Shown: positions 26,871-47,856, counted from the first letter of the stretch. The stretch is DNA of 64,000 nucleotides from Candidatus Babelota bacterium (GCA_016871815.1 VHBT01000003.1:14317-78316), one strand, 5' to 3'. The notes: generated by a model not told the origin, from the letters alone. Program-made: numbers and translations.

Positions 26871-27428
26871 ATGAAAATAATTCTCATTGCTTTTCTTGTG
26901 CTGTACGTAACTCAAGAAGCAAAATGCCCTCCGATTGATCAACCGACTGAAAATGTGACGCATAATGAATCCGCCAAAGAAATCAATAAATCCTCTTTGA
27001 TCACAGAAACTTTTTGCAAAAAAATGTCTACCGCTTCTCTTTATGAAAAAGTCATGCAATTTCCACTGCAAGATATGATTGATCGTTGCAAGCTTGATCA
27101 CAACTACACAGATCAAGACATGCAAATTTTAGAAAAAGAACTACGTCGTTTTTTATACCTTTGCTTACAAAACAAAAACGGCGGTACAGGTATGTACTCG
27201 AAAGACGTAGACAATCTTTGGCACGCTTTCATCTTGCATACCCCAGAGTATGTTGACTTTTCAAACCTAACAAAAGGTTCTTATATTCATCATATTCCAA
27301 AACGTCCAAACGAACCGCAAAAAAAAGATTCTACTGATTTTGCTCTTTTTATAAGAAACTATGAAGCAACATTTAATGAAAAAATTCACCCCGTTTGGTT
27401 TATTGATATGATCGAAAAACAACAATAA
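26871..27428 (+). CDS. Secreted hypothetical protein with a WHxFILHTxxY...HHIP motif (possibly related to the GRDP-like/DUF1399-type family)
   Basis: 185 aa with signal MKIILIAFLVLYVTQEA and the motif DVDNLWHAFILHTPEYVDFSNLTKGSYIHHIP. The family assignment is from memory and has low confidence. Confidence 0.7.
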   Translation: MKIILIAFLVLYVTQEAKCPPIDQPTENVTHNESAKEINKSSLITETFCKKMSTASLYEKVMQFPLQDMIDRCKLDHNYTDQDMQILEKELRRFLYLCLQNKNGGTGMYSKDVDNLWHAFILHTPEYVDFSNLTKGSYIHHIPKRPNEPQKKDSTDFALFIRNYEATFNEKIHPVWFIDMIEKQQ

Positions 27429-27895: not shown

Positions 27896-27939
27896 CAAAG
27901 GGCCCATTTTCGGGCCCTTCTCTTTTTAAAAAGATCTTT

Positions 27940-30141
27940 TTATCTCAACGAACGATTTCGAGCATTTTTGATAATTTGTTCCAATCGCGGGTTTGATAAT
28001 TTTTGCTTACGCATCTGATCCAAGAAAATATCAAACGCTACATTTACATCACCCACACCTGGAGTCAACGTATACGGATATGAAACAACAAAATCATCAT
28101 CAACAGATGCTGTTACTTTATAATTTTCAAAAGCTCCATTGGTCATAGTCTTTAATGCAGTCAAATCTTTGTAGTGCGTTGCAAGTACATAATTTACTTT
28201 TTTATTCAAAGCAATTTCTGCACACAACTCAGCTGACAATAAAACCGCAGGATCAAATTCTGTACCACTAAACAATTCATCGGTTACCACAAGCATCTTT
28301 TCTCCGTCTTGCAATTCGTCTGCTTGCTTAAGAACAGAAACCACATCAAATGCTTCCGCCATAAACTTTGACTGATTATTTGCGGTGTCATCAACACTAG
28401 AAAATCGTGCAATAATTTTTTTGTACGGAGTTAAAACAAATTTTGACGCACAAGCAACACCAAAATTTTGTGCAAAAAGAACGTTAACCAAGAGCGACTT
28501 CATCGTAACAGATTTACCGGCAGCATTTGGCCCTGTAATAATCATATTTTGCGCATCATCAGAAGTTCTACCCAAAATAATTGAGTTTGACCTGACAACA
28601 GCTTGAGGCAAAATTGGATGCCACATGTCTTCTGCAATAATACGCGCTTCTGACGATTCTTCATCAAACTCTGCAAAACATGTTCTAATCGGAGCTCCGA
28701 TATCATTGGTTGCATTTTGCGTATCAACAATTAACTGCGCTATTGCTGCATACGCATCAACTTCACCATAAAATTGAACCGCACTCGAAAAATCGGAAAC
28801 TGTCTCGCCAAGTAACTTGGTCATATTCAATACTTTGGGATGACTAGCCGAAAGCATGCTATATTGTTGATCTTCTTTAAATGACGAACTTGAAGCCTTA
28901 CTTACAAGCTCTTGCCACTTTGCAGACAAGCTCGTTTCATACGATTGCAAATACTCAGAATTAACAACAGGCACTGCACTTGCATTCAAATAAGCGAGCA
29001 ATCCATCAATTCCTTTAACATATGTAGACAGTTTTTGAGCTGTAGCAAAAGCTTCTTCTTGATACTTTTTCATCCATTTAACAAGATTAAAAATACCATA
29101 ACAAAGAACAGCACAAAGAGCAGGCAAAGCAACTCTATCAATAATCGTGTAATCGGTTTTAGCTCCTTTGGTTATCCAACTCAATACAGCCTGCCCAGCG
29201 CCACGATAATTGGTCAAACATGCCAACCCAGCAACAGCCGAAAGGGTAAAATAACCGAGATACATCAAATTCTGCAGAATTACACCAAGGCTTCCTGCTG
29301 CTTCCGTCTGTGCAATCTTGCCAATCAAATAAAGTGCTCCAAATAATCCATTTCCGATCGCCATATTTTTAAGCCACGCATATCCAGCAGGATTAAACAA
29401 ATAAACGGCATAAAAAAGAGCTACCTCAAGACCAACAATCACCATCATTTTTTTAGCTTGAGACATCGCTTCAAAGGGATTTGGAGCCAACGGAATTTGA
29501 TTTGCCAAAGTATCTTCGTGCGCAGCGATTGAACGTAGTGAACTTTGGACATTTTTTAATAATGCAGGAGAATCAACAAGAGCCTTGATAAAGGCCTGTC
29601 TTCTTTTTACCACAGGAAGATTAACGTCAACTTGCGATGCCAAACCAACAAAACATGCTTGACCTGCTCGAGTAATTGTTTTTCCTAATGATCTTACAAC
29701 TGAATTTTGTCCATCTTTATTGGTGAGCTGCAAATCGGCCAACAATTTTATGCGAGATTTTCGGGCTTCAAATTCTGCGGTAGAAAAATATTTTTGAGTA
29801 GTAAGATCGTCCCACGAAATAACCATTCTATCATTCAACAAACTAATCAGCTTAGCATTTGTGCTGACAGGTAAAATCCCTTGAAACAGAGTCGTTTTAT
29901 CATTATTAATTAACGGTAATGTTAAAAACTGCGACACCAGAGCCAATTCTTTTTTTTGTAAACTTAAATGATTTTGCTCAATCATATCTTCTCCCAAACC
30001 GCTTGGAGCAACTAACAGCATCGCTGGCTGCATAACCAATATTCCCAACAACACTTGTGCAATTTTTTTCTTGTATGTAAAAAACACCTTTAATTCACCC
30101 TCTTTATAATTTTTAAAATTTCTACAAATTTTTATTAACAA
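27940..30141 (-). CDS. Membrane-associated MutS-related ATPase (MutS domain V only; no mismatch-binding domain)
   Basis: 733 aa. The C-terminal region is ITGPNAAGKSVTMKSL (Walker A, nt ~28507-28533), QSKFMAEAFD (MutS STFxxE signature), MLVVTDELFSGTE (Walker B) and LATHYKDL. The middle contains about four hydrophobic helices (MMVIVGLEVALFYAVYLF..., LGVILQNLMYLGYFTLSAVAGLACL, VALPALCAVLCYGIFNLV). It overlaps merR by 20 nt. Confidence 0.85.
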   Translation of the reverse strand: MLIKICRNFKNYKEGELKVFFTYKKKIAQVLLGILVMQPAMLLVAPSGLGEDMIEQNHLSLQKKELALVSQFLTLPLINNDKTTLFQGILPVSTNAKLISLLNDRMVISWDDLTTQKYFSTAEFEARKSRIKLLADLQLTNKDGQNSVVRSLGKTITRAGQACFVGLASQVDVNLPVVKRRQAFIKALVDSPALLKNVQSSLRSIAAHEDTLANQIPLAPNPFEAMSQAKKMMVIVGLEVALFYAVYLFNPAGYAWLKNMAIGNGLFGALYLIGKIAQTEAAGSLGVILQNLMYLGYFTLSAVAGLACLTNYRGAGQAVLSWITKGAKTDYTIIDRVALPALCAVLCYGIFNLVKWMKKYQEEAFATAQKLSTYVKGIDGLLAYLNASAVPVVNSEYLQSYETSLSAKWQELVSKASSSSFKEDQQYSMLSASHPKVLNMTKLLGETVSDFSSAVQFYGEVDAYAAIAQLIVDTQNATNDIGAPIRTCFAEFDEESSEARIIAEDMWHPILPQAVVRSNSIILGRTSDDAQNMIITGPNAAGKSVTMKSLLVNVLFAQNFGVACASKFVLTPYKKIIARFSSVDDTANNQSKFMAEAFDVVSVLKQADELQDGEKMLVVTDELFSGTEFDPAVLLSAELCAEIALNKKVNYVLATHYKDLTALKTMTNGAFENYKVTASVDDDFVVSYPYTLTPGVGDVNVAFDIFLDQMRKQKLSNPRLEQIIKNARNRSLR

Positions 30142-30892
30142 AAAATATCATTGCATCGGCCAAATAGCAGGCCAACTCATAATGCAACATAGTACTTCCT
30201 AGATTTTTTACAAATTCAACATTTTTAAGCGCTTCAAACGACTGAATACGTTGATTTTTATCTAAATTCGGGACAAGTATTTTGCTATGTTCAAAATTTT
30301 CACGCGCTAAAGCCTGCACACACTCGTCATCGATCGGAGTATTTTTTTCATAAAAAGCAGCAAATGTACTTAAAATCTCATTAGATTTTCTGACATACGC
30401 TGTCCATTCATTATCCCAGGTCCAATTTTTAGTAAGAGCAACCACTTCTTGCTCTGCCTGCTGCAAACAAGAGGCATACTCTTCACCCAAAACTGACAAC
30501 GTTTGATCTGTTAACTGTTGCTTTTTTTCTGCAACATACTGCTCTGTTGTTTTGCCTTTCGCCATTTCTAGATTTTTGATAAAAACATCAATCGCATCAA
30601 CAAGTGCCTGCTTCCGCTTAAGTTCAGTCAAAACAATCTCTTTTTGACGTAAAAGATCTGTCTTAAAATCAAACCCAGGATCAGAAAACATTTGTTGAAT
30701 TTTTTTAAGATCGTAGCCCAAATCCTTAAAAAAAATGATTTGCTGAAGCCGTATAAGTTCTGTCGTCGAGTAATATCGATAGCCGTTATCCGCAACTACA
30801 GCCGGTTTAAGCAATCCAATTTGATCATAAAAACGAATAGTTCTAACAGTAACCCCTGTTAAATCTGCTAGTTTTTTAATCGTATATTTCAT
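30122..30892 (-). CDS. MerR-family transcriptional regulator, TipA/Mta-like (TipAS-type C-terminal domain)
   Basis: The N-terminal wHTH is MKYTIKKLADLTGVTVRTIRFYDQIGLLKPAVVADNGYRYYSTTELIRLQQIIFFKDLGYDLKKIQ. The C-terminus ...NLGSTMLHYELACYLADAMIFF resembles the end of the TipAS effector domain. Confidence 0.85.
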   Translation of the reverse strand: MKYTIKKLADLTGVTVRTIRFYDQIGLLKPAVVADNGYRYYSTTELIRLQQIIFFKDLGYDLKKIQQMFSDPGFDFKTDLLRQKEIVLTELKRKQALVDAIDVFIKNLEMAKGKTTEQYVAEKKQQLTDQTLSVLGEEYASCLQQAEQEVVALTKNWTWDNEWTAYVRKSNEILSTFAAFYEKNTPIDDECVQALARENFEHSKILVPNLDKNQRIQSFEALKNVEFVKNLGSTMLHYELACYLADAMIFFVNKNL

Positions 30893-30924
30893 TTTTTTAC
30901 CTCAAAAAATCTACTCACTTTTTA

Positions 30925-30955
30925 ACGATAAGGCATGACGTTACTGGAAGGTCAA
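30925..30955 (-). promoter_or_regulatory. Candidate MerR-type promoter with a 19-bp spacer (TTGACC-N19-TATCGT)
   Basis: On the minus strand, TTGACC (30955-30950), the 19-nt spacer ttccagtaacgtcatgcct, then TATCGT (30930-30925). It lies about 33 nt upstream of the merR ATG (30892, GAGG SD). The over-long spacer is the hallmark of MerR-activated promoters. Confidence 0.45.
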
Positions 30956-31048
30956 GGGGTATTGTTAAAAAACATTAAAAAAAATTTTTATAAAAAAAGG
31001 GGACAGTGAAAACCACCGTCCCCGAAAAAATGTATGAACAAAAAAGTA

Positions 31049-32176
31049 TTATTCAACGCACTCGATACAATCTTCTTCAACGCACTCTGCGCCACAAGAA
31101 TCATCTAGAATTTCTTCCTTTTCAGAAAAATCTTCTACGGAAAATGAATTATAAACAAGCACCATCGATGGATCCTGAGGTCTTCCCCACACCTCTCTTG
31201 AAACCTCTTTTTCTTCAACAAGAACACTTGAAGGAACATGTAACAAAACAGAGCCTTCTGCATTTTTTGAAACTAAGACTTTAAAGCCACCATCAATCAC
31301 CAAAGAATCATCTCTCACGATTGGAAGTGCTGTTACAAGGGTATTTGATGCAAAGTCATACTGTGAATTTGATGTAACAAAAAAAGATGTCGATGAAGTT
31401 GACTCTCTATCAATACGTGCAATCAAGCTAGGGTCTATAACCGCACCAACTTCTTGCACAACATTCATAATCCCCATCAAATCTTCATCCGAAAACGACG
31501 AAAATACTTCTTGTTTCACGTCCATAAGCACTTGCATAATTTGCATTCTATTTTCATCAGTCAAATCGGCATTTTGGGCACCAGAAAAATTTGCCAATAC
31601 GTTATTCAAGAGAATATCTAAAACCCCTTCAAGATTTGCCGTATCATAATCAGCTTTGTGTTTTTTTATAAGAGACACAATGTCTGAAGAAATTTGCTTA
31701 ATTTGAGCAGAAAGCTCTACAAGATCAGTGTTTATTTCACTAAACTCGGATTGATTTTTCATCAAATCCATAAGCTTTTGATTGCCCATAACAAATCGAT
31801 CTTTGATTCCCGAGAACTCAATCAAGCTAGAATACTTAAATAACAACGGCACGTATTTTTTTGCTACATGACCGATATCAAGTACAAGGCCGGCATCTTC
31901 TGCCATTTCTTGAGATAATCTCTCAAATTCTTGGTCCATGTAAGCAGTTATTTTTTCAACACCATCATTAGTCGCGGATGAAGAAAGCCAATTTTCAAAA
32001 AAAAGGCTCATTCCTGAACGAACAACCAATAACCTATCAAGCGGAGATTTTGCAGCTACCTGTTCTTCACCCGAAACAACAGCAACAACCTGCGTGTCAA
32101 CATCCAAAGATGCCAACAAAGGTAACCCACCAACAAATACCGCGGATAACAAAAGAAGGTTTTTTAAATTTTTCAT
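31049..32176 (-). CDS. Secreted hypothetical protein with an acidic Cys-rich C-terminal tail
   Basis: I chose the ATG at 32176 (GAGGA upstream): MKNLKNLLLLSAVFVGGLPLLASLD... It ends in ...EEILDDSCGAECVEEDCIECVE. No domain recognised. Confidence 0.75.
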   Translation of the reverse strand: MKNLKNLLLLSAVFVGGLPLLASLDVDTQVVAVVSGEEQVAAKSPLDRLLVVRSGMSLFFENWLSSSATNDGVEKITAYMDQEFERLSQEMAEDAGLVLDIGHVAKKYVPLLFKYSSLIEFSGIKDRFVMGNQKLMDLMKNQSEFSEINTDLVELSAQIKQISSDIVSLIKKHKADYDTANLEGVLDILLNNVLANFSGAQNADLTDENRMQIMQVLMDVKQEVFSSFSDEDLMGIMNVVQEVGAVIDPSLIARIDRESTSSTSFFVTSNSQYDFASNTLVTALPIVRDDSLVIDGGFKVLVSKNAEGSVLLHVPSSVLVEEKEVSREVWGRPQDPSMVLVYNSFSVEDFSEKEEILDDSCGAECVEEDCIECVE

Positions 32177-32331
32177 ATTTTTCCTCAAAAAACACACCCT
32201 GCAACTCTCTACTATCACAGTAATTCAGTTGCCCAAAAAAGCAACAGGAAGGCCTCAATAGCAAAAATGATATGTTTTTAAAGAAAAAACCACCCGAGGC
32301 AACCCTGAAGCAAGCAAATCAATTCTTAAAA

Positions 32332-33567
32332 TTAAGCGCGTTTAGGAATTAAAACCATTCTTTGACGAGGAGGAATCTGAGAACGACCTCCAACTGAATC
32401 TTCCAACCGAAAATCAAGTTCGTCACACCCAAAAAAGTTTTTTACCGCATATAACCACTGCTCTATAGAAATCCTCTGATTTTTTTCATGCCAATAAATC
32501 ATCTTTTTTGAACATCCATTCTGTAAGGAACATTTGCCAAATTGTTTTTTACACCTAGGCTCTTCTTCAGATATCACCGCAGATTCACCCAACTCAACAC
32601 CAATTATTTCTCCGCTGCCATCAAATAAAAAATTTGCTATAAACCCTGAAGGAAAATCCAATTCTTTTTTTCGAACAACAGTCGAAAGTCGGGTTTTAAC
32701 TATCCCCTGGTCACATTCAAACCAATAATTCAAATATGGATCGCCTCCAAGAATAGACACATCAACAAAATTATCTGCTAAGAAAAGAGTGAAACAGTCA
32801 GATAAGTCTTTAAAAAAAGATTCCTCAAGAAGATTTCCTTTTCCAAAAAGATTTCCCAACTCATCTTCATTCCTATCACGATCATTAAGCCCAAGAAGGT
32901 GAATATAAGAAAACCTTTCCTTTGGCAAATCTAATCCATCGCTAGCTGCAACAGTCATTAAAAACATCTTCCATTTATAAATAGCGACCCACTTTTTTCC
33001 AGAATTTGGTAAATATTTACTCAAAAAAGTCTCTGCGGCAAACCATACTTTTTTAATCCCCAAAGAAAAAGCTTCAAGTTCGTTCAAAGAAATTAAAGAA
33101 AAAGCCCTAAGCGCTTTTTGATTTGCACAAACCTCAAAAGGATTAAGACCAATCAAAAAAAATAAAGTCAACTTATGATAACTAACCATGATTTCATCAC
33201 AGAATAAACGTATAATCTCCTGCAAATCATTAATGAATTCAACCTTCTCAGGATATTTTTCTTTCAAAACTGAAATGCCTAAAATAAATTGTCCAAAAAG
33301 GCTCTCAAATTTTTTTTTAACTTGCTCATCTGATGACATTAAACAAATTTTCATTTTTTCAAATGAATCTGTTACCAACAACAATCCATTCGGATCAAAT
33401 TCGCCTCTTTGAGCAATTTTTTCAGGGTCAGAACCAAGCAAATCCCGAACAGTTGTCTGCGAAACGTCTTTTCCTGCCGATATACAAACAACATCATCTA
33501 CGCCATACGCCATTCCAGCAAGACAAATAAAAACCCAAATAAATAACGCTTTTTGATTCACAAACAA
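32332..33567 (-). CDS. Secreted hypothetical protein
   Basis: 411-aa ORF with signal MFVNQKALFIWVFICLAGMAYG. No domain recognised. Confidence 0.75.
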   Translation of the reverse strand: MFVNQKALFIWVFICLAGMAYGVDDVVCISAGKDVSQTTVRDLLGSDPEKIAQRGEFDPNGLLLVTDSFEKMKICLMSSDEQVKKKFESLFGQFILGISVLKEKYPEKVEFINDLQEIIRLFCDEIMVSYHKLTLFFLIGLNPFEVCANQKALRAFSLISLNELEAFSLGIKKVWFAAETFLSKYLPNSGKKWVAIYKWKMFLMTVAASDGLDLPKERFSYIHLLGLNDRDRNEDELGNLFGKGNLLEESFFKDLSDCFTLFLADNFVDVSILGGDPYLNYWFECDQGIVKTRLSTVVRKKELDFPSGFIANFLFDGSGEIIGVELGESAVISEEEPRCKKQFGKCSLQNGCSKKMIYWHEKNQRISIEQWLYAVKNFFGCDELDFRLEDSVGGRSQIPPRQRMVLIPKRA

Positions 33568-33697
33568 ACCTCTTCAAGTAAAATTAAATAAGTGTTAATT
33601 CTATCAATAAATAGCATTTTTAAAAAATTAACTGTAAAAACCAGCTTTTTTTTAAAAAATTAAAAATCAGCAAAAAACCAATATCACGGAATTAACC

Positions 33698-35308
33698 ATG
33701 GACAGAAAAAAACTTGGCCACATTATTGGCGGATCCTTGATTGACGGACTACTCATGCGTATGACGTCTGGCGCAGACATCGAAAATGCCAAAGCGGGCC
33801 GATTTGTCTGCATTGATGGCGGAACGTATCGTTTTTTTTCGCTTATTTCCAATATTGCCCTCGACTCAATCGGTGATAATTTTACAAAAACAACATTAGC
33901 CACAGAAAACTCATTTACCGCACAAATTCTGCGAAAAAACAATTTTTTTGCGACCTTGTTCATTAAACCACTTATCATGCTTGATGCAAAAAACAATTTA
34001 ATGCCGGTAAAAACCATTCCTCCTCACTGCGCACCGGTCTATGAAGCGCATGACTCGGAAATTGCACTTATTTTTGGCACCGAGCGCCCGGATAATCTTT
34101 TTTTCAATATTGGCACTCCTCTTGATATGAACACCCCAGTTTGCCTGGATCTCAACAAACTAACCGAACGAAGTAATGCTGTTTTTGGAAAAACAGGAAC
34201 GGGTAAAACATTTATCACCCGCATTTTGCTCGCAGGAATTTTAGCGAAAAAAGCTGGCGTAAACCTTATTTTTGACATGCATTCTGAATATGGACTACAA
34301 GCTCGCCAAGAGGGCAATAACAAAAAATTTGTGAAAGGTCTTAAAACCCTTTTCCCATCACAAGTTGCTATTTTTTCTCTAGACCCAGCCTCCACAAGAC
34401 GACGTGGATGCGCTCCAGACCAAGAAGTTGTTATCGGTTTTGATGAAATCACGGTCGATGACATCATGCTTCTCTCTGAAGAGCTCTCCCTTCATACTAC
34501 CGCTCTAGAAGCAGCATACCTTTTGCATACTCGATTCAAAAAAAACTGGCTCTCTATGCTTTTAAAAAACGAATCTTCGATCAAAGAACTTTCTAACGAC
34601 CTAGGAGCCCATCCTGAATCGATGGCTGCTCTTTTAAGAAAACTTAAACGACTTGAATACCTGCCCTTTCTAACTCAAGAAACTACCGAAAAATCGGTTA
34701 TTAAAAGCCTTCTTTCATATCTGGATCGCGGCATCAGTGTTATTTTAGAATTCGGACACCAAACATCTATGCTCAGTTATCTGTTGGTAACCGGGGTAAT
34801 TACCAGGCATATTCACCATCATTATGTAAAAAAAACAGAACAATACTTAGCAGACCCTGCAAACCAACCAGAACCCCATAAATTAATGATAACCATCGAA
34901 GAAGCACACAAATTTTTAAATCCTCAGGCAGCAAAACAAACTATTTTTGGCACAATCGCCCGAGAATTGCGAAAATACTACGTATCGCTCTTAATCGTTG
35001 ATCAGCGACCATCTAGCATTGATTCTGAAGTCTTATCCCAGGTGGGAACAAAACTTATTGCACAACTTAATGATGAACGAGATATCCAAGCTGTTCTTAC
35101 CGGAGCACCCGACAGCGTAAGCTTAAAATCCGTGCTGGCAACCCTTGACTCAAAACAACAAATATTAGCTCTCGGACACGCTCTTACCATGCCGATAGTC
35201 TTAAAAACGCGAAAATTTGATGAAACTTTTTACAAAGATGTCTCTGAGATAAGCCTTCCGGGGGGAACCATTCTCTCAACCAAGGAAAAAATCGATACAA
35301 TTTTTTAA
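33698..35308 (+). CDS. HerA/FtsK-superfamily P-loop ATPase (HerA-like, DUF87-type)
   Basis: 536 aa with Walker A FGKTGTGKTFI (nt ~34187-34210), Walker B LMITIEEAHKFL and the HerA-typical LLIVDQRPSSIDSEVLSQVGTKLIAQLNDERD motif. Confidence 0.8.
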   Translation: MDRKKLGHIIGGSLIDGLLMRMTSGADIENAKAGRFVCIDGGTYRFFSLISNIALDSIGDNFTKTTLATENSFTAQILRKNNFFATLFIKPLIMLDAKNNLMPVKTIPPHCAPVYEAHDSEIALIFGTERPDNLFFNIGTPLDMNTPVCLDLNKLTERSNAVFGKTGTGKTFITRILLAGILAKKAGVNLIFDMHSEYGLQARQEGNNKKFVKGLKTLFPSQVAIFSLDPASTRRRGCAPDQEVVIGFDEITVDDIMLLSEELSLHTTALEAAYLLHTRFKKNWLSMLLKNESSIKELSNDLGAHPESMAALLRKLKRLEYLPFLTQETTEKSVIKSLLSYLDRGISVILEFGHQTSMLSYLLVTGVITRHIHHHYVKKTEQYLADPANQPEPHKLMITIEEAHKFLNPQAAKQTIFGTIARELRKYYVSLLIVDQRPSSIDSEVLSQVGTKLIAQLNDERDIQAVLTGAPDSVSLKSVLATLDSKQQILALGHALTMPIVLKTRKFDETFYKDVSEISLPGGTILSTKEKIDTIF

Positions 35309-35463
35309 CCAATAATCCAAATCGAATAACCATTTTTATCAAAAAAAGAGCTTTTTTTTAGCTCTCTTCTAAAAAAAACCATTCCTCCGCAGAATCTGTA
35401 TCCTCAAAGAATAAGGTTTGCTCACACATTAAAAGATATGTACAAGATTTTTGGAATCAATAA

Positions 35464-38400
35464 ATGGTAAAAACGCACAAAATCGCTTATTTTTTACTCG
35501 TTTTACAATTTTTACAACTCACAGGGGGTCTCTTCTGTGGGGGTGAAGTTATTGTTGATGCCCCAGAAATCATGGAAACAGATCTCCCAAGCGCAAACAA
35601 ATTCAAACAAATTCAACGACAATGGATCAGGGTAGATGTCTCCTCAAAAAAGAAAGTCGTTTCATTTGATTCAGCGCCAACTGATATTGAAAAAGTTATT
35701 TCCGGCGGTAAAAGCTCTCTTCCAAAACACCGCAATAACGTACTCAATTTTTTCATAGAAACAAGCTCTAAAAACAAATCATTAGTACATTTTTCCAAGG
35801 AACGAGACTGGGAAGATCTTCAGCTTTTTAATGCAAAAACAACGTTACTAGATTCGTGCTGCAGAACAGCGACAACCTCTGGTGAAGTTCTCATGGCAGG
35901 ACTTATCACGCATCGCCCATCGATTCAAACAAGTCTAGATAGACGCGATTTTATTTCTGCTCTCAGCGCAAAACAAGACACCAGAGATATTCTCCGAAAA
36001 CAAGTTAACCGCTTCTCATTAGTTGAAGAAACCTTTTTTAGCCTCACAATGCAACCCGAAGATCCTGTCATTCGGGCTTCAATCGACGATCTAAAACCAA
36101 AACTAGAAATTCCTGGCCTCTTAAAATTTTTATTATTTTTAGGACAACCCGTTGCGGCCTTAGAGCTCTGCGGCCTTGAATATCTTTTTAAAAAAACAGG
36201 CTCAATGGATAAAATTATTAATAATCCAGAATTCATACGATGGCATGCAATTATCACCCAAAAAACAGCTCACTATTTTTGGAACCCACTAATAAATCAA
36301 TTATTAGTTGGCTGTTATTTTATTATAAATCCATTACGAATGAATAACGGAATTGCATTCGCCCTACTCAGGAATAACTTCAGAAACGCTATTGTATCTT
36401 TTGACAAAGATAAAGACACGCAAACCCTTGTAAGCACAATGTTTAAAAACATTCCGTTACAATTAAACTCTCCCGAAAACCAAATCCCACCATACACTGG
36501 GCCCGCAAACGATCCAGTGGCACAATTTATTCATTCAATTCCATATCGCGCTAAACAAGGAATGATCATAACAAAACCAATTTTTACCATAGCGTGGTAC
36601 ATTGCAAAAAAAATGTGGCTTGGAAATTTTACCAACACAAATGTTTTTCCCCTCTCTCCGTTAAAAGGTTTCAAGTCTCTTCTTTGCCTTGTAAACGATT
36701 TATTCTTTTGGAACACAAATGAGCTCAGACAAGCTATCTGTGACAGTAAGCCTACTCCGCCATCAACAAGCGCAAGCGCAGCAGAAAAACGCTCCTGGGA
36801 AAATCCCGGAGTATTTGATGGGCCTTATTTATCATGGTCTTTAAACGAACACACTCACACAAGCCCATTTATATACGCTGCTCACTCATTACTCAGACTT
36901 ACACACAAATCTTTTTTTCATGAAGATCCAACATCAAAAGCCGACTTTGTAACCGATCAATCTACAAAAGAAAAACTAAAACAAATTGCGATTAACCATA
37001 TCGAAAAAGTCAAAAAGGAAAATCCTGGGAATACAACAGCTCAAAACCTATTGGACAGACTCAGCCTCATTACAAAACCAACTGATACCTATATTGACTA
37101 TCTTTCTTGGTGGAAAAACGTTGGAACACAAACAATTAAAAGCCTATGGAATACCTTTATTGCGCCAAATCAACTCTCAACAATCGATGAATATGCTCAA
37201 TTAATTCCACGCAAAGATGATTTAAAGGAAATTTCAAGCTCACTTCTTGGGATTCTTTCTCATTATAAAAACTCTCCGCCAGAAAGAACCAGTCCCAGCC
37301 GTGGTCATGCAATCACCCAAATGACTGCATGGTTTGTCATCAGTATTTTATTTGGGCGTTGGCTCGATAGACACTTAAATCCTAAAGAACGTGTTGATGC
37401 AATCGACAAAATTATTTTTAGCGCAACAAAACCTGCGATGGTTTTATTATCTGCAACTTCAGAAATTTTTGATGCACTTACAACAAACGCACATCATTTT
37501 ATTTTTCCACCAAGCTTAGCTTCTAAGCTCGCTCTCTTCAAAACAACCTCATCTCAACATGCAGATCTTATCTCCTACTCAAAAGATAAAACATTTACTC
37601 AAAAAACAGGTCATACCATTTTTGATCATATTGGAAAAGTTCGCACAGCATACGACTTAATCCAAACACCGGATGCAAAAAAACTACTGGCTCTGTGTAT
37701 TCATATTATCGCAGAAGTTGATTGCTATCTCAGTGTTGAAAAATTATCAGAAGAATTTAGCTCAACAGAAAACAAAGTTTCACCAGTTGAATTCATTAAT
37801 GCTCAATCACCATTTATCAACATAAAAAATGGATGGTTTCCTCTGTTTGGAACCAAGTCAATCGGAACCGATTTACTTATGGGAAATGGGCACTCAGAAA
37901 ACATTCTTCTCACCGGTCTTAATGGTGGCGGAAAATCTATTCTACTCAAAAACATTGTCTTCAATTTAATGTTTGCTCATGCGTTTGGCTGGGCATTTGC
38001 AACTTCATGCACGATCACTCCTTTTTCTCAACTTATTCTTCACTTAAATTCTCTTGATAATGCAGCAGAAGGAAAATCTCGTTGGGTTGCAGAAGCTGAA
38101 GCAATCGTAGACATGATCAAAGCAGCTCTAACTCAACGATCTGCACAATATTTTATCTTTGCCTCGGGCGATGAGCTCGGAGACGGAACCGCTGCACAAG
38201 CATCTATTAATGTTATGACAAAATTATTAAAAGCTTTTTCTAGTCAAAAACACGTTCTTTCTATCATTTCATCTCACCTCCAACCATTAACAGAACTCGA
38301 AAAAACAATCACTCGACTAAAAAATTGTCGAATCAATCAACAGCGAAAACTTGAAGACGGAATCAATAAGACAAATATCGCATTAGCAATTTTTGAAAAA

Positions 38401-38508
38401 TTTAGTAACACCCGTACAGATGAAAATGGTTTTGCAGCCCTTTTGGCAAAAGAAATTGCCGCGCAAGAAGAGCAAGATCAAAACTCTTTTTCTCTTATAA
38501 GCACATGA
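35464..38508 (+). CDS. Giant membrane-anchored MutS-domain-V ATPase paralogue (1014 aa)
   Basis: N-terminal signal or anchor MVKTHKIAYFLLVLQFLQLTGGLF, followed by a long unique region with hydrophobic segments. The C-terminal region is LLTGLNGGGKSILLKN (Walker A, nt 37915-37941), KSRWVAEAEA, FIFASGDELGDGTA and ISSHLQPL. Confidence 0.85.
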   Translation: MVKTHKIAYFLLVLQFLQLTGGLFCGGEVIVDAPEIMETDLPSANKFKQIQRQWIRVDVSSKKKVVSFDSAPTDIEKVISGGKSSLPKHRNNVLNFFIETSSKNKSLVHFSKERDWEDLQLFNAKTTLLDSCCRTATTSGEVLMAGLITHRPSIQTSLDRRDFISALSAKQDTRDILRKQVNRFSLVEETFFSLTMQPEDPVIRASIDDLKPKLEIPGLLKFLLFLGQPVAALELCGLEYLFKKTGSMDKIINNPEFIRWHAIITQKTAHYFWNPLINQLLVGCYFIINPLRMNNGIAFALLRNNFRNAIVSFDKDKDTQTLVSTMFKNIPLQLNSPENQIPPYTGPANDPVAQFIHSIPYRAKQGMIITKPIFTIAWYIAKKMWLGNFTNTNVFPLSPLKGFKSLLCLVNDLFFWNTNELRQAICDSKPTPPSTSASAAEKRSWENPGVFDGPYLSWSLNEHTHTSPFIYAAHSLLRLTHKSFFHEDPTSKADFVTDQSTKEKLKQIAINHIEKVKKENPGNTTAQNLLDRLSLITKPTDTYIDYLSWWKNVGTQTIKSLWNTFIAPNQLSTIDEYAQLIPRKDDLKEISSSLLGILSHYKNSPPERTSPSRGHAITQMTAWFVISILFGRWLDRHLNPKERVDAIDKIIFSATKPAMVLLSATSEIFDALTTNAHHFIFPPSLASKLALFKTTSSQHADLISYSKDKTFTQKTGHTIFDHIGKVRTAYDLIQTPDAKKLLALCIHIIAEVDCYLSVEKLSEEFSSTENKVSPVEFINAQSPFINIKNGWFPLFGTKSIGTDLLMGNGHSENILLTGLNGGGKSILLKNIVFNLMFAHAFGWAFATSCTITPFSQLILHLNSLDNAAEGKSRWVAEAEAIVDMIKAALTQRSAQYFIFASGDELGDGTAAQASINVMTKLLKAFSSQKHVLSIISSHLQPLTELEKTITRLKNCRINQQRKLEDGINKTNIALAIFEKFSNTRTDENGFAALLAKEIAAQEEQDQNSFSLIST

Positions 38509-38518
38509 AGGTGAAGTA

Positions 38519-41500
38519 ATGAAAAATACCTATAAAAAACAATCGAAAAAGATATTTCTCTGCGTCCTTCTTGTAGTTCACACCCTTTCTCCAACGGCGC
38601 TTCTTTTTTCAAAACCAAGAGCTGTACACGTTTTTAAAAAAACAAACATGCATTTACCATCAAGAAAAGCATTTCAAGAAATTGCAAGTTGCTGGGAAGG
38701 ACTACAACCAGCTGCATATATAAAAAATAAAAGTAAAAAAATTGGTAATCTTGATACGCCTGAACAAGCGATTTCGTTCATCTCTGCCCAACAAGGCTCG
38801 CTAAAAAAACACAGTGAAGTAAAACCAATTGCAGAAGCTCTTGAATATCTTTCTGATCTTGCAAGCCCTGCAAGTGCATTTGACCTTTTAAACTCTACCC
38901 CTCGAGCGGTTACAGACTTACAAGTTTTTGGAGAAAAAGGCTTTTATAAAAATATTAATCGAACATCATTAGCGCTTGGCCAAGCATTACAAATTACACA
39001 AATTTACCAAGGCGCACGCTCAGAACTAGAAGCAACAGAACGCAGAGACCTTATTTCATCTTTTTTAAAAAATCCTGACTTAACAAAAGCAGTTTGCCTG
39101 AGAATAAAAGCTCTTCAAAAGATTGAAGCACAATTTTTACGTCAATCAAAAGCCTCTTTTAATCACAATCTTGAAAATAAAATAGAAAAACTTGCGCCAT
39201 CTAAATGGTTTGGGAAATATCGCGAAAACGCAAGCTTCATGCGATGGCATGCCTTTTTTACTCAAAAAACAGCCAATTGGTTTTTTGGATACGAACACCA
39301 GAAAGCAATGTATCTTTTTAGCGCATTCCTTACGATTGTATCGCTCGTTTTAAGCAAACAAAGTCAAACATTTGTATATGATTTTTATTCAGCATTAAAA
39401 AATTTTATCAAAAGAACAAACACATCTCCACAAACCGGAACCGGAGTTGCAAGCTCTTCTGTGTCAACAGGAACCACAACACCCCAAGATCAGCCGCAAG
39501 TCCCTCCACATACCTTCACACAACAAATTCGCTCATTCCCTCGAGTAATGGTTCAACAATATTTCGAAAGAAACCCAAGCGGAATGTTATGGATCTCTGA
39601 AAAATTCTACAACCGAACACTTGAGTCTCCAAGCAAGCGAGCCGCCAGTTTAGAAAGACTCAAAGATGGGTGCTCAGATACCTCTGGTCTTCGCATGCTT
39701 GCAGATTTTATGTTTGGTCCACTTACAGGACTATTTAGCGGTCTTGGCGCTGCTACATCAAGTGCTGCAAAAACGCTTATAGATCCATTAAAAGGACCAA
39801 TTTCATCTGCTCAATGGAAAGATGCTCCGTTAAGCAGCTTAACCTCACTTCCATACAAAAGTGCTGTTGCGGATTTTAAAAAAAGATTTTGTGAAAATTT
39901 TGGAGAATCAAGCTTCATGTCTTGGCGTATGAATGGTCTTGATAGTCTGCCAAAAATGACCCAGGAGTACATCTTAAAAGAAATTAATGAAAACAAAGAT
40001 CTTGCAGAGCTTTTTATTATTGATAAAACAGATCAAACAAATTCAGAGCAAACAATCGCCCACCAACTATTCAAATGGGTAGATCCTTTTGGTTTTTACA
40101 GATATTCCGATGCGCTTCAAGACAGCGCAACTCCTGCTGATGGCATCACCAATGCTGCAAAAAAACTTACAGGCGCTCCCGATGAAGAAAAAAATCCATT
40201 TAAAATGCTAAATACTGTGCTAAATAATTTACCAGGCATAAACAACCTTTTAACCGGAGACCTGGGACAAATAAGCGTTCCTGCTCTTTTTTCTAATCCA
40301 TTCACCATGATTAGATCAATCATGATATCTCCAGGTGCCAACTTATTTAAACTGCTTTTTGGATATGGAGGCAGAACTCACTGGAATTGGGGTTTTCTTG
40401 GCCTACGAACGCGAGAACTTTTGTATGCTCTTTCAAATCCATTTGTACAAGCAGCATTCAAAGAAAAAACTTCTAGGACTCATGAACACGGTGGAAATAC
40501 CTATAAAATAACGTTTGCGCCAAATTTATTTAATTTAGCGTCCTTACTCAGACCCGCTTTTTATTGGGCAAGATGGCTATACTATAAATCATATATAACA
40601 GAGACTCCTGCTAGCAGGCTGTCAAATACATATAACGCGGAAAGAATTATTCAAGCGAGAATAGCTGAAGATGCGAACAAGAGCGATTCTCTTTTTGATG
40701 GATGCGATTTAAATGCCTTTAAATTGTTCACCGTCGAATCAGTTAACGCCGATGGCTCTATTTCAACTGAAGATATTAGCAAACAACAAGCATCAGAAAT
40801 CCTTCTTGAAGCAATAAATACCGGAAAACTTCAACAATTATTCCAAACTCGTAATACGCAAGGCCTTACGGGAGATGAATTAGCGCAAGCTCTCAAACAT
40901 AATCAGTCAATTCTAAACAAAAAATTAAATTGGAAAAAATTCATCCTTGGACTTGAAGTTCTTGCATTAGTCACCATCTTTGTCGGTAGTAAATTTTGGT
41001 CAACGTTTGTTTTTGGAGCAAAGACGAAAGTTGAAATGTACGACGTTCTTGATAAATACATGTTCGAATCCGTAAAGCCGTCGATTATGTTTGCAGAACT
41101 TACCAGACAAATCAGTGGAATCTTCAAAAACAACTCACACGACCTGCCTCTTCCAACTTCTTTAAGAGAAAAATTTGCTCATATTGCTCATACCAGCTCA
41201 AAAGAATGCCAAGAATTTTCCCTTATCGCCCAAAATAGCCTTTTCTTCAAAGACACTCACCCGGGAACATTTGGCGACGTTGGCTCTGTGAGACGTGCAT
41301 ACCAACTCCTCAAAAGACCTGACGTAAAAGAATGGGTTGCAACATGCGCAACAATTATTGCAGAACTTGATAGTTATACGGGAATGGCGCGCCTTGTTGT
41401 TGAACACAAAGACATTCAAAATCCTTACGCACCAGTAAGATTTGTTGATCAAGAGAAACCTTTTGTTCACCTTGAAAATTTTTGGTTTCCACTACTCAAT

Positions 41501-42238
41501 CCATATCTTCAAAAATCAAATTCTCTCACCCTTGGAACCCTTGAAGATGCAAGCCTTGCAGAATACTATCAACTTACTGAAATGCTACCACCAAGCGCTT
41601 TGATTACAGGAATTAACGGAAGTGGTAAGTCGATTGTTCTTAAAGGAATCATCTGGGCAATTATGATGGCTAAAACATTTGGGTATGCGCCATTAACAAA
41701 CGGCGTCATGACATTTATTGATAAAATGATTGTTCATCTAAGTAGCACAGACAACGCAGCTGAAGGCGAATCATGCTGGATAGCTGAAGCTAAAGCCATG
41801 GGACAGGCAATTCACACAATGCAATCACCTCGACAAGGATACGAAAAAATTCTATTTATCGGTGATGAACTTGGAAGTGGAACAGCTGATCATGCATCTA
41901 TCGCATCTGTCGCTCAATTAATCGAAATCGCAGTATCAACCCCTCACGTTGCATGTATTGTCACAACACATCTACGAATTCTGACTGAACTTGAAAGAAT
42001 ATCAAAAGGAAGAATCCTTAACTATTGTGTAGGAAAAAGACTACTACCTGACGGATCAATCGAAGGACGATTTATGCTCCAAAGAGGTCGCGCAGAAAAT
42101 AATATCGCCGAAAAAATCGTTAACGACTTACTTCATAAGGGCCACATTGATATCACAGATCCTTCAGAATCGTCAGAAGAAACATGGGAAGACGAAAAAT
42201 CAGCAGCAACTGAAATACTACCAGAAGTAACCGCATAA
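38519..42238 (+). CDS. Giant membrane-anchored MutS-domain-V ATPase paralogue (1239 aa)
   Basis: GAAGGTGA SD. N-terminal anchor KKIFLCVLLVVHTLSPTALLF. It shares FMRWHAFFTQKTANWF with the upstream paralogue (FIRWHAIITQKTAHYF). The C-terminal region is LITGINGSGKSIVLKG (Walker A, nt 41609-41635), ESCWIAEAKA, ILFIGDELGSGTA and VTTHLRIL, ending in an acidic tail. Confidence 0.85.
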   Translation: MKNTYKKQSKKIFLCVLLVVHTLSPTALLFSKPRAVHVFKKTNMHLPSRKAFQEIASCWEGLQPAAYIKNKSKKIGNLDTPEQAISFISAQQGSLKKHSEVKPIAEALEYLSDLASPASAFDLLNSTPRAVTDLQVFGEKGFYKNINRTSLALGQALQITQIYQGARSELEATERRDLISSFLKNPDLTKAVCLRIKALQKIEAQFLRQSKASFNHNLENKIEKLAPSKWFGKYRENASFMRWHAFFTQKTANWFFGYEHQKAMYLFSAFLTIVSLVLSKQSQTFVYDFYSALKNFIKRTNTSPQTGTGVASSSVSTGTTTPQDQPQVPPHTFTQQIRSFPRVMVQQYFERNPSGMLWISEKFYNRTLESPSKRAASLERLKDGCSDTSGLRMLADFMFGPLTGLFSGLGAATSSAAKTLIDPLKGPISSAQWKDAPLSSLTSLPYKSAVADFKKRFCENFGESSFMSWRMNGLDSLPKMTQEYILKEINENKDLAELFIIDKTDQTNSEQTIAHQLFKWVDPFGFYRYSDALQDSATPADGITNAAKKLTGAPDEEKNPFKMLNTVLNNLPGINNLLTGDLGQISVPALFSNPFTMIRSIMISPGANLFKLLFGYGGRTHWNWGFLGLRTRELLYALSNPFVQAAFKEKTSRTHEHGGNTYKITFAPNLFNLASLLRPAFYWARWLYYKSYITETPASRLSNTYNAERIIQARIAEDANKSDSLFDGCDLNAFKLFTVESVNADGSISTEDISKQQASEILLEAINTGKLQQLFQTRNTQGLTGDELAQALKHNQSILNKKLNWKKFILGLEVLALVTIFVGSKFWSTFVFGAKTKVEMYDVLDKYMFESVKPSIMFAELTRQISGIFKNNSHDLPLPTSLREKFAHIAHTSSKECQEFSLIAQNSLFFKDTHPGTFGDVGSVRRAYQLLKRPDVKEWVATCATIIAELDSYTGMARLVVEHKDIQNPYAPVRFVDQEKPFVHLENFWFPLLNPYLQKSNSLTLGTLEDASLAEYYQLTEMLPPSALITGINGSGKSIVLKGIIWAIMMAKTFGYAPLTNGVMTFIDKMIVHLSSTDNAAEGESCWIAEAKAMGQAIHTMQSPRQGYEKILFIGDELGSGTADHASIASVAQLIEIAVSTPHVACIVTTHLRILTELERISKGRILNYCVGKRLLPDGSIEGRFMLQRGRAENNIAEKIVNDLLHKGHIDITDPSESSEETWEDEKSAATEILPEVTA

Positions 42239-45296: not shown

Positions 45297-45498
45297 TACC
45301 CCTCAAAAAATCAAAAATACAAGAGTCAAGGTATTATAAAATTTATACCAACACCAACAGATTGGCCGATTCAATGCCGCTTTTTTTGAAAACTATCTTG
45401 TCATGCTTCAAACCGCTTACCTAGACTATCATATAGGCATACGGCTGGTAATCTGGCAAGGATGCCATGCTCTGTGTTTCATACATAACGGGGGGGTT

Positions 45499-47856
45499 AT
45501 GAAGGAACTGCAAACAGCGCCAGAGACATCTAAAAGCTCTGACGCACTGTCACTTATTCCAACAGTAGACATCGTGGTATTCCCACAGATGGTTGTTCCA
45601 TTGCTTGTCATGGACCAACGCATCATCGATGGCGTTAACAAAGCTCTCGAGGGATCAAAAGAAATTTTACTGGTGGCGGTACGTGGCTCTAGCGATAATA
45701 CACAAAAAGCCGTAGAGGCTGAAGATTTATACGAAGTCGGCACGATCGGAAAAATCATGCGCGTTATGAACATTCCAGAAGGTGGAATGAAGATTTTAGC
45801 GCAAGGACTCCGCCGTGTATCTATTCAAAATGTACATTCAGATGAAACAAGCATTTCTGCTGAAGTTTCTGAATATCCATTCGACTCTCAGATCAATAAT
45901 CCGCAAGTCGAAAAAAAAGTGCGCGAAATTATCGCACTGTGTGAACGAATGTCATCTTTGGGCGGCTCTTTTAATCAGGATTTTCATGTAATATTTTCTC
46001 AAATTGACGACCTTGAACGATCGGTAGACTTTCTACTTTCACATCTGACGCTTTCAGTTATTCAATCTCAGGCATTACTCGAAAAAAAACTAATGATTGA
46101 ATTACTCGATGAACTATTCGTCTACCTGGAAACAGAAGCCGAAACAGCTCGCATGCAAGAACGCATCAAACACAACGCCCGCGATGCCATCAACAAATCG
46201 CAACGTGAATATTACCTACGAGAACAACTGCGTGCAATTCAAAAAGAGCTGGGCGATGACGTTGACAATGAAATGGACGATCTTAAGAAAAAATTAGAAA
46301 ATCCTGCACTTTCTGAAGAAGCATCAAACGAAGCAAAAAGACAACTACGAAGACTTGAACGCACATCTCCAGATTCCCTGGAAGCTACAGTTATTCGTAA
46401 CCATCTTGAATGGCTTTTGGGTCTTCCCTGGGGTAAAACAACCACAGATAACCTAAACATCACATATGCAAAAAGTATTTTAGATCGCGATCATTATGGG
46501 CTAGAAAAAATTAAAGATCGAATTCTTGACTATCTTTCCGTAAAAAGCTTTCAAACTTCAGATCACTCTCCGATTTTATGTTTTTCAGGGCCTCCCGGGG
46601 TTGGAAAAACATCGCTTGGAAAATCGATTGCTGAATGTCTTGGAAGAGAATTTTTCAGAATTTCTGTTGGTGGTTTGCATGACGAATCTGAACTCAAAGG
46701 GCATCGACGAACCTATGTTGGGGCACTTCCAGGTAGATTTATCCAGGCTATTTCAAAAACAGGAAGCATGAATCCTGTGATTGTGATTGATGAAATAGAC
46801 AAAATCGGACAATCAGGCAAAGGCGATCCTTCTGCTGCATTGCTTGAAATTCTCGACCCTGAACAAAATAACAATTTTTATGACAATTATCTTGGAACTC
46901 ATTTTGATCTTTCAAAGGTAATGTTCATCGCAACATCAAACGATCTGCACAACATCCCAGCTCCGCTGCGAGATCGTATGGAAGTTATTGAACTTTCAGG
47001 CTACACCGTCGAAGAAAAAGTAAAAATCGCAAAACAACATCTTGCACCACGAGCAATTAACTTTTCCGGGCTCAAAGAAAAAGGGCTTGATTTTGATGAC
47101 TCTGTTTTAAGAGAACTTATTATTTCATACACCAGAGAATCTGGTGTTCGAACGCTCAATCGATACATTCAAACGCTGTGTTCAAAATTTGCACGTGCAT
47201 TACTCGAGACCGATACCAAAACAATCTTTACCAAAGAAAATCTTGCAGAGTTTTTAGGACCCCGAAAAATTTCATTGGATAAAAATATCACAAAAAATCG
47301 AATCGGCGTTACAAACGGTCTTGCATGGACACCATTTGGTGGAGAAATCTTACAAGTCGAAGCTGTCATGATGCCTGGACAAGGAAAACTTACACTCACA
47401 GGACAACTTGGAGATGTGATGAGAGAATCAGCTCAAGCTGCAGTAAGTTACATTCGTTCAAAAGCAGATGCTCTTGGGATTAAACAAAATTTGTTTAACG
47501 AAACCGATCTTCATATCCACTTTCCTGCTGGTGCTATTCCAAAAGACGGTCCATCTGCCGGCATCACGCTCGTTTCTTCGATTTTATCGGTTATGACGCA
47601 ACGTCCAATTAATGGAAACTTTGCAATGACCGGAGAAGTTGATTTGCATGGTGGAGTTCTTCCTATCGGCGGACTTAAAGAAAAAATATTAGCCGCAAAA
47701 CAACATGGCGTTACAAATATCATTGTACCAAAAGAAAATAAGCACGATGTTGACGGGCTTGATGACATTCTTCAAGGCCTTACACTTCATTTCGTTTCTC
47801 ACGTAGATGAAGTTGTCTCTCGTGTTCTTATGGACAAGGAACCATTGAGGGCTTAA
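45499..47856 (+). CDS. lon: ATP-dependent protease Lon (LonA type, full architecture)
   Basis: I chose the ATG at 45499 (GGGGGG upstream). It has the Lon N-domain LSLIPTVDIVVFPQMVVPLLV..., Walker A GPPGVGKTS (46588-46614), Walker B VIVIDEIDK, LDPEQNNNFYDNYL and APLRDRMEVIEL. The protease has DGPSAG (Ser codon 47554-47556) and GGLKEK, with the Lys 43 residues after the Ser. Confidence 0.95.
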   Translation: MKELQTAPETSKSSDALSLIPTVDIVVFPQMVVPLLVMDQRIIDGVNKALEGSKEILLVAVRGSSDNTQKAVEAEDLYEVGTIGKIMRVMNIPEGGMKILAQGLRRVSIQNVHSDETSISAEVSEYPFDSQINNPQVEKKVREIIALCERMSSLGGSFNQDFHVIFSQIDDLERSVDFLLSHLTLSVIQSQALLEKKLMIELLDELFVYLETEAETARMQERIKHNARDAINKSQREYYLREQLRAIQKELGDDVDNEMDDLKKKLENPALSEEASNEAKRQLRRLERTSPDSLEATVIRNHLEWLLGLPWGKTTTDNLNITYAKSILDRDHYGLEKIKDRILDYLSVKSFQTSDHSPILCFSGPPGVGKTSLGKSIAECLGREFFRISVGGLHDESELKGHRRTYVGALPGRFIQAISKTGSMNPVIVIDEIDKIGQSGKGDPSAALLEILDPEQNNNFYDNYLGTHFDLSKVMFIATSNDLHNIPAPLRDRMEVIELSGYTVEEKVKIAKQHLAPRAINFSGLKEKGLDFDDSVLRELIISYTRESGVRTLNRYIQTLCSKFARALLETDTKTIFTKENLAEFLGPRKISLDKNITKNRIGVTNGLAWTPFGGEILQVEAVMMPGQGKLTLTGQLGDVMRESAQAAVSYIRSKADALGIKQNLFNETDLHIHFPAGAIPKDGPSAGITLVSSILSVMTQRPINGNFAMTGEVDLHGGVLPIGGLKEKILAAKQHGVTNIIVPKENKHDVDGLDDILQGLTLHFVSHVDEVVSRVLMDKEPLRA

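Follow-up and report, generated by a model that had tools for sequence, protein, structure and literature searches.

Do the seven adjacent genes at positions 27940-42238 of a Candidatus Dependentiae (TM6) contig build one membrane machine, or do they only lie side by side? The stretch analyzed here, which we call the window, spans 64,000 nucleotides (GCA_016871815.1, VHBT01000003.1:14317-78316) of a contig from a metagenome-assembled genome (MAG) of these intracellular parasites of protists. A preliminary description of the block had proposed that three membrane proteins ending in a MutS domain V ATPase act together with a HerA-like ATPase, a TipA-like MerR regulator, and two secreted proteins as a single NTPase system. 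All seven open reading frames (ORFs) were found where it had placed them, and their identities as three MutS_V paralogues (M697, the 715-aa product; M1014; and M1239), a HerA, a TipA-class MerR, and two unknown proteins were borne out. Our analysis leads to a different view of how these genes belong together: the block is probably not one system but contains three genes from a MutS-derived, ABC-type ATPase family that is large and lineage-expanded in Dependentiae.

A MutS-derived core in three paralogues

Pfam MutS_V (PF00488) matched M697, M1014, and M1239 with E values of 1.7e-23, 1.3e-14, and 3.3e-13, respectively. The Walker A, signature, Walker B, and T/SH motifs are legible in the translations of all three and align to Escherichia coli MutS, and the catalytic residues are intact, as had been described. 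The paralogues share their C-terminal 270-340 residues at 25-36% pairwise identity (36% over 342 aa for M1239 and M1014), and M1014 and M1239 also share a weak N-terminal match. Domain V had been considered the only recognizable part of these proteins, which did not hold, since domain III is found in all three. Using hhalign, we detected its N-terminal half in M1014 (E 1.4e-12) and M1239 (E 3.7e-9), while the C-terminal modules, taken from just past the last hydrophobic helix, aligned with E values of 1.9e-54 and 1e-50. Of 16 family members, 14 matched MutS_III (PF05192), with a best E of 2.5e-7; in the short paralogue itself, the match was weak (residues 100-170, E 0.047). Positions 92-674 of a 109-member family profile aligned to residues 295-847 of human MSH2 in a single stretch covering the lever, clamp, and ATPase region; MSH3 aligned in two stretches around the clamp (82-269 to 301-511, E 2e-9, and 400-671 to 594-870, E 8e-40).

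The modules with which MutS handles DNA were not found. Neither domain I (MutS_I, PF01624) nor domain II gave a match at E<=1 in the three paralogues or the 16 family members, and clamp domain IV (PF05190) gave none; in M697, its position is held by hydrophobic helices at residues 186-319. Pfam and NCBIfam detected no KOW or Smr domain in the paralogues, which scored 49-90 bits against the NCBIfam MutS model (cutoff 480) and 27-73 bits against mutS2 (TIGR01069; cutoff 400). Matches to ABC_tran were marginal (E 0.2), and the combination of an LSGGQ domain with a canonical transmembrane domain that marks ABC transporters was not found. As domains I and II, Smr, and the clamp are all missing, the paralogues are, judging from their sequences, not mismatch-repair enzymes, which agrees with the preliminary description. 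Their lever-plus-ATPase core has intact catalytic residues, is devoid of DNA-binding modules, and carries hydrophobic helices at the tips of the levers.

An AlphaFold2 model of the short paralogue, built on a 109-sequence alignment (pLDDT 87.1, pTM 0.86; a 5-sequence alignment had given a pLDDT of 40), puts helices 186-213, 219-241, 244-274, and 297-350 in the clamp position. The last of these is 54 residues long and runs from a hydrophobic segment into the lever. When the model was searched with Foldseek, the top matches in the Protein Data Bank (PDB) were MSH2 and MutS (630-750 alignment columns, E 2e-16, TM-score 0.44-0.49). The proteins, which are uncharacterized, have an N-terminal leader and internal hydrophobic helices, much as originally described, arranged in a common plan: a Sec-signal-like leader, ~70-100 aa, domain III's N-terminal half, two to four hydrophobic helices exactly at the position of the MutS clamp, the C-terminal half of domain III with the returning lever helices, and domain V. 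The two larger paralogues owe their extra length to an insert that starts after the first of the hydrophobic helices and ends before the last. By hydropathy, the insert of M1014 (~380 aa) lies between helices at residues 218-236 and 616-634, both weakly hydrophobic, and that of M1239 (~530 aa) between helices at residues 261-279 and 808-826.

A large and distinct family

A profile search with the C-terminal module returned 1046 clusters (50% identity) at E<=1e-30, a threshold that we estimate to correspond to ~125-130 bits; with the same profile, canonical MutS scores 50-102 bits. Among the best 150 matches, most are 650-750 aa long with Walker A at about residue 480-520, and most have a hydrophobic N-terminus followed by one to three central hydrophobic segments. 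The long type (900-1260 aa) accounts for only ~10 clusters. Of 129 representatives, 101 have a signal-peptide-like N-terminus, in which an n-region with K/R precedes an h-region of 14-25 aa that in many cases closes with an AxA-like end, and the OmpH/Skp periplasmic chaperone encoded in the window has a leader of the same kind.

We compared the family with the known MutS lineages using a full-length family hidden Markov model (HMM). A true member, L009, scored 674 bits, compared to 170-190 bits for canonical MutS1 and 154-172 bits for four membrane MutS paralogues from Bacteroidota and Planctomycetota (L049, L065, L023, and L047). Because of this gap, the Dependentiae proteins are predicted to form a distinct subfamily, and any architecture that they share with MutS3-like proteins may be convergent or ancient. 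With MutS1/MSH proteins, the family shares the lever/core domain III, domain V, and all catalytic motifs, in keeping with the structural matches of the model; it differs in lacking domain I and connector domain II, in having hydrophobic helices at the position of clamp domain IV, and in its signal-peptide-like leader and many tandem copies per genome. MutS2, an Smr endonuclease with roles in recombination suppression and ribosome-collision rescue, is likewise composed of domains III and V without a domain I, and its NCBIfam model gave a partial match (73 bits, cutoff 400). However, the Smr and KOW extension and the clamp of MutS2 are not present in the family, and PDB entries of MutS2 scored below those of MutS/MSH.

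A close architectural parallel is MutS3, defined by a MutSac domain (domain V) located toward the C-terminal end, an optional MutSd domain (domain III), and the absence of MutS-I and MutS-II, and functionally unstudied (Lin, Nei, and Ma 2007, PMC2190696). The three paralogues have this architecture. The four Bacteroidota/Planctomycetota proteins (594-666 aa), which we assume from taxon and architecture to be MutS3, follow the same order of domain III N-terminal half, transmembrane helices, domain III C-terminal half, and domain V, but begin with a transmembrane hairpin rather than the signal-peptide-like leader of the Dependentiae family. MutS3-like proteins often occur in two copies per genome, and no massive tandem expansion has been reported for them. 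Against the family HMM, these presumed MutS3-like membrane proteins were no nearer to the Dependentiae family than MutS1. A MutS_V ATPase in a non-DNA role is known from KamC, the lysine 5,6-aminomutase reactivase ATPase (NF052383), which matched weakly at 34-52 bits (cutoff 300); KamC, however, is a soluble protein whose N-terminal region differs.

Family members are named "hypothetical protein" at NCBI, while JGI sometimes applies the erroneous name "DNA mismatch repair protein MutS". Among the papers searched, we found none linking Dependentiae to MutS paralogues or covering membrane MutS-like proteins, and the MutS-derived Dependentiae family appears to be undescribed and unnamed. Word-indexed protein searches returned the same narrow clade and canonical MutS only, and a scan of viral contigs in IMG/VR found no family member. 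The member used above as a reference (L009:8336-10804, 822 aa) comes from a GTDB species-representative MAG labelled "uncultured Pseudomonadota bacterium". Its contig, at a G+C content of 0.36, correlates with the Dependentiae window at 0.95 in tetranucleotide usage, and mis-binning or mis-classification may therefore explain the label.

A conserved merR-M697 module

The first paralogue is directly preceded by the gene for the MerR regulator. The two had been reported to overlap, based on a 733-aa ORF that proved to be an extension from an upstream TTG. Orthologues align from "FFTYKKKIAQVLL...", NCBI calls a 715-aa protein, and a GAGG ribosome-binding site lies ~10 nt 5' of GTG 30087. Since the merR stop codon is at 30122 and M697 starts at 30087, the genes do not overlap.

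MerR (256 aa) matched MerR_1 (PF13411; E 8.8e-20), with a TipAS (PF07739) score of 20.0 bits, under the Pfam cutoff of 23.8. Its best solved relatives are SkgA, Mta, and TipA (SkgA 7cla, E 1.5e-26 over residues 3-199). In six lineages, including L089 and L090, merR lies directly 5' of the M697 orthologue; in L090, the pair has been kept in different genomic surroundings, bordered by polA, ruvX, and a TsaD-family (PF00814) gene at one end and by priA and a MatE gene at the opposite end. The merR promoter is strongly conserved across the six lineages, with TTGACC and TATCGT separated by a 19-nt spacer that contains the dyad TGACGy-A-rCGTCA. The L090 dyad is perfect (CTGACGCAGCGTCAG), and its substitutions relative to L008 are symmetric. 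A 19-bp spacer with an internal dyad is a hallmark of MerR-type promoters. The motif TTGACC-N8-RCGTCA has a single site in the window; each of the 10 loci with a merR has it once, always just 5' of that gene, and the remaining 90 loci lack it. A terminator separates merR from the upstream leader-protein gene, and a hairpin beyond the 3' end of M697 is likely the terminator that closes the unit.

From these sequence features, merR and the 715-aa paralogue appear to form a conserved, self-contained, autoregulated module. The 715-aa copy would be co-transcribed with, and controlled by, a TipA/SkgA-class MerR, and its autoregulated 19-bp-spacer promoter would make it a ligand- or stress-induced module. 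The MerR helix-turn-helix, the SkgA-like region of ~200 aa, the 19-bp spacer with a dyad, and the autoregulated layout are shared with the TipA/Mta/SkgA activators; those control an efflux pump or stress protein, whereas the target here is a MutS-derived ATPase and the TipAS match is sub-threshold. In L089 (5770-8085), two ORFs of 205 and 557 aa together make up the M697 orthologue; the break reflects either an error of assembly or a frameshifted pseudogene.

The M1014/M1239 pair, HerA, and family copies elsewhere

The genes for M1014 and M1239 are always adjacent, with gaps of 8-11 bp (10 bp in the window). The ATPase sites of MutS are composite across the dimer, and with an invariably adjacent pair, a heterodimer is the natural inference: by analogy, M1014 and M1239 probably form one. 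Large-plus-small pairs recur in other arrays (916+682, 920+677, and 913+671 aa), which suggests that these are conserved heterodimer pairs. Of the functional links originally drawn through the block, those between merR and the 715-aa paralogue and between the 1014- and 1239-aa proteins thus stand, but that to HerA is not supported beyond local synteny.

HerA (536 aa) matched DUF87 (E 8.6e-33) and, weakly, the HAS-barrel in Pfam, and Sulfolobus HerA (4d2i) at E 5.6e-19. Relatives at 71%, 46%, and 37% M1014 identity share the order of a MutS-like gene, merR, and one to three leader-protein genes running leftward, followed by HerA, ~1000-aa, and ~1200-aa genes running rightward. Downstream, OmpH, Pth, ABC, and Lon are retained as well, and the shared order therefore reflects general synteny. 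In these relatives, HerA is 74-89% identical (Lon, for comparison, 74%), versus 37-71% for M1014, 52-67% for the 715-aa paralogue, and 35-72% for MerR; HerA is therefore evolving at a much lower rate than the MutS-like genes. In all likelihood, it is a conserved cytoplasmic ATPase, independent of them, that lies beside the 1014/1239 pair in one clade only.

The HerA-M1014 spacer itself (window 35309-35463) has kept its length in L004, L006, and L008, contains no convincing conserved terminator, and carries a conserved block, GAATCnGTATCCTCAnAnAATA, ~50 nt 5' of the M1014 ATG that, from its sequence, could be a promoter or regulatory element. A HAS-barrel plus DUF87 hexameric ATPase like that of HerA-NurA, Sir2-HerA, and DUF4297-HerA is present in the window; those defence and repair systems have a partner nuclease or effector and none was found at this locus, and NCBIfam HerA equivalogs scored below 100 bits (cutoffs 800-970). 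In line with the preliminary description, Pfam, NCBIfam, and PADLOC revealed no NurA, Sir2, or DUF4297 partner, nor another nuclease, among the neighbors. A defence system was considered and rejected, as PADLOC gave no system-level match and returned only a generic HerA, the MerR helix-turn-helix as mad1, and P-loop noise.

Scanning metagenomes for FYGE[IVL]D[AV]Y, a motif specific to the family, yielded 12 further loci whose ORFs were compared with the window proteins by phmmer. Tandem arrays were found in L095 (five copies), L096 (four), L098 (two), and L100 (two), while L089 has three copies and a MerR, and L090 a MerR and two copies. Among these loci, HerA occurs only in L091 and L092, both of the syntenic clade; arrays that have neither HerA nor MerR close by lie among housekeeping genes, with HflX, RNase H, YdjM, DUF2177, and RuvB as neighbors. 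The window and L096 derive from one sample (L096 G+C 0.384, tetranucleotide r=0.99), and the organism represented by the window therefore probably carries at least seven family copies. The arrays in L095 (200-11591) and L096 (8873-19034) are each broken by one small opposite-strand gene, which in L096 encodes DUF2177.

Mechanism and sidedness

If the family works as its parts suggest, its members would dimerize through domain V, as in MutS, and ATP binding and hydrolysis would move the levers. This motion would act not on DNA but on membrane helices or a trans-membrane loop domain, a working principle akin to that of a mechanotransmitting ABC machine. Both dimerization and lever-to-membrane coupling are proposed by analogy to established MutS and ABC-ATPase mechanics. 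The type VII ABC proteins MacB, FtsEX, and LolCDE offer a comparison at the level of function, in that an ABC-fold dimer would be coupled through long helices to membrane helices and an extracytoplasmic loop domain; they differ in sharing no homology beyond the P-loop fold, and the family belongs to a separate ABC-class lineage and has no ABC_tran match beyond the marginal ones above.

A second expanded family of membrane-anchored ATPases is present in the window. Four tandem Lon-like paralogues of 376, 586, 910, and 1253 aa (47919-57550, plus strand) lie 3' of canonical Lon (45403-47856). They have a leader-like N-terminal helix and a second hydrophobic helix 30-40 residues on, which together form a hairpin. 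The 910- and 1253-aa proteins contain duplicated AAA+ modules followed by one Lon_C protease domain, and the 376-aa protein is AAA+ only.

Several observations weigh against the family interpretation, or against parts of it. Homology and the AlphaFold2 model place both halves of domain III on one side of the membrane, so an even number of helices should separate them; combined with a Sec-type leader, an even count would put the ATPase outside the cytoplasm, leaving the predicted topology contradictory. Signal-peptide and transmembrane calls were made with simple hydropathy heuristics, and the central helices are only moderately hydrophobic in many family members and in M1014. The taxonomic range of the family rests on two NCBI names, sequence composition, and metagenome contigs. 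Among the matches listed in a reference-genome scan by Walker A peptide, canonical MutS dominates and L009 is the sole family member. Finally, no terminator was detected between HerA and M1014, so the pair may be co-transcribed with HerA.

Alternative readings

That MerR, the three MutS-like ATPases, HerA, and the two signal-peptide proteins form a single conflict or translocation system appears improbable. A gene order kept down to 37% M1014 identity, a HerA-M1014 spacer constant at 154-169 bp, and the lack of a visible terminator within it would fit such a system, but the relatives share the OmpH, Pth, ABC, and Lon flanks too, as expected of plain synteny. Beyond the clade (L089 and L090), M697 orthologues have a MerR without HerA, and other arrays of the family have neither. 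The MerR operator is restricted to merR, the terminator cuts the genes for the signal-peptide proteins off from it, HerA is slower-evolving than its MutS-like neighbors, and the PADLOC matches were limited to generic HerA and helix-turn-helix hits. Family copies at unrelated loci (HflX, RNase H, RuvB, PolA, and PriA) are without HerA/MerR, and to a large extent they are what the preliminary description had itself named as an argument against a joint system, scattered copies of a widespread family. Still less probable is membrane-tethered handling of DNA or RNA by the MutS core, such as DNA uptake or chromosome-membrane attachment, perhaps fed by HerA. MutS ancestry, intact ATPase motifs, and the adjoining HerA/FtsK-type translocase would suit this role, but domain I and clamp domain IV are absent or replaced, the proteins have a signal-peptide-like leader, and the linkage to HerA is found in one clade only.

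The alternative that we take more seriously, while still considering it unlikely, is that these are exported ATPases, with a real signal peptide, the MutS core and ATPase outside the bacterial cytoplasm, and the helical hairpin as an anchor. The anchor could sit in the inner membrane with the protein facing the periplasm, or, once secreted, in a host or vacuolar membrane; the fuel would be host ATP, which such energy parasites take up in any case, and the result would be an expanded effector or envelope family with at least seven copies per genome, conceivable only in an energy parasite. Consistent with export are the widespread leaders of the same kind as that of OmpH/Skp, the placement of both domain III halves on one side, the often just moderate hydrophobicity of the central helices, and the multi-copy, fast-evolving nature of the family. 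The Dependentiae member Chromulinavorax relies on host ATP and has signal peptides on 44% of its coding sequences (PMC6561590). On the other hand, Sec normally inserts hydrophobic helices into the bacterial inner membrane, and in the Lon-like proteins of the window, leader-like helices are the first half of a hairpin with the ATPase in the cytoplasm. A leader-like N-terminus is therefore not proof of export, and by analogy to these hairpins, the family leader may act otherwise than as an export signal. We also know of no established extracytoplasmic ABC-type ATPase that would serve as a precedent. K/R density is equal on both sides of the helical region (~2.05 per 15 aa) and thus uninformative for sidedness, which the hydropathy of the helices does not settle either.

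Locus layout and other features of the window

Contigs of JGI sample 3300021376 and of two Logan runs carry the locus as well. At NCBI, the 1014-aa product is "hypothetical protein FJ366_01245" and the 715-aa product "FJ366_01220 [Candidatus Dependentiae bacterium]". The positions of the genes and elements are collected in Table 1.

Table 1. Genes, domains, and regulatory elements of the block, in window coordinates
Feature	Position	Strand	Details
G+C-rich hairpin	27898-27919		Between convergent genes 26871-27428 (+) and M697 (-); likely terminator
M697/715, MutS-derived ATPase	27940-30087	-	715 aa from GTG 30087; 697 aa from ATG 30033
M697, domain V	28048-28545	-	
M697, hydrophobic helices	29077-29478	-	
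M697, domain III N-terminal half	29524-29736	-	
Mechanical 733-aa ORF of first paralogue	27940-30141	-	
MerR regulator, TipA/Mta/SkgA class	30122-30892	-	256 aa; first gene of merR-M697 operon
merR promoter and operator	30925-30955	-	TTGACC, 19-nt spacer with half-site ACGTCA, TATCGT
Intrinsic terminator, strong	30999-31023	-	11-bp stem, 7 G-C pairs, T run
S389, no known domain	31049-32218	-	389 aa; N-terminal leader
S411	32332-33567	-	411 aa; N-terminal leader
HerA-type ATPase	33698-35308	+	536 aa, without leader; HAS-barrel and DUF87
M1014, MutS-derived family member	35464-38508	+	MutS_V E 1.3e-14, hhalign, hydropathy
M1014, domain III N-terminal half	~35731-36072	+	
M1014, domain V	37906-38358	+	
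M1239, tandem partner of M1014	38519-42238	+	MutS_V E 3.3e-13, hhalign
M1239, domain III N-terminal half	~38894-39151	+	
M1239, domain V	41600-42001	+	

The two proteins that had been described as secreted, S389 and S411, do have hydrophobic leaders at their N-termini by hydropathy. Neither has a Pfam match. No NCBIfam or PADLOC match was found for S389, and no homologue of S411 was detected, even in the closest relative. S389 is fast-evolving (33-39% identity in relatives) and belongs to a small paralogous family with one to three tandem copies in relatives (paralogues in L006, L008, and L091); its C-terminus is acidic and Cys-rich (DDSCGAECVEEDCIECVE).

The window has a G+C content of ~38% and an rRNA operon at 3134-8268. 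Its GC skew is negative in every 2-kb bin from 1 to 64000 regardless of gene orientation (-0.05 to -0.32; cumulative -6.1). A 755-aa protein with a pectate-lyase-like adhesive domain (8808-11075, minus strand) and a 310-aa protein with Sel1/TPR repeats (13636-14568, minus strand) are typical candidates for host interaction. At 58207-61500 on the minus strand, a 1097-aa protein combines an N-terminal leader, E/R/A-rich repeats (RAEEARLAAE...), and a CxxC...CxxC motif resembling a zinc finger; it also matches Pfam DSPc in two stretches (E 8e-16) and has two copies of the dual-specificity phosphatase motif HCxxGxxRS. By its motifs, this protein looks like a eukaryote-directed effector.

Implications

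MutS is best known as a DNA-repair machine. The family to which the three paralogues are assigned is large, with at least about 1000 clusters, and keeps the MutS lever and ATPase while exchanging the clamp for membrane helices and gaining a secretion-type leader. It would thereby represent a MutS engine repurposed for a membrane or host-facing job. Recognizing the family averts the false inference of mismatch repair in Dependentiae genomes. Transcription factors are very few in this phylum, and the MerR-controlled copy may offer a simple handle on regulation. If the exported reading is true, an ABC-class ATPase would operate outside the cytoplasm and run on host ATP. Collectively, these proteins are candidates for envelope or host remodelling by obligate protist parasites.

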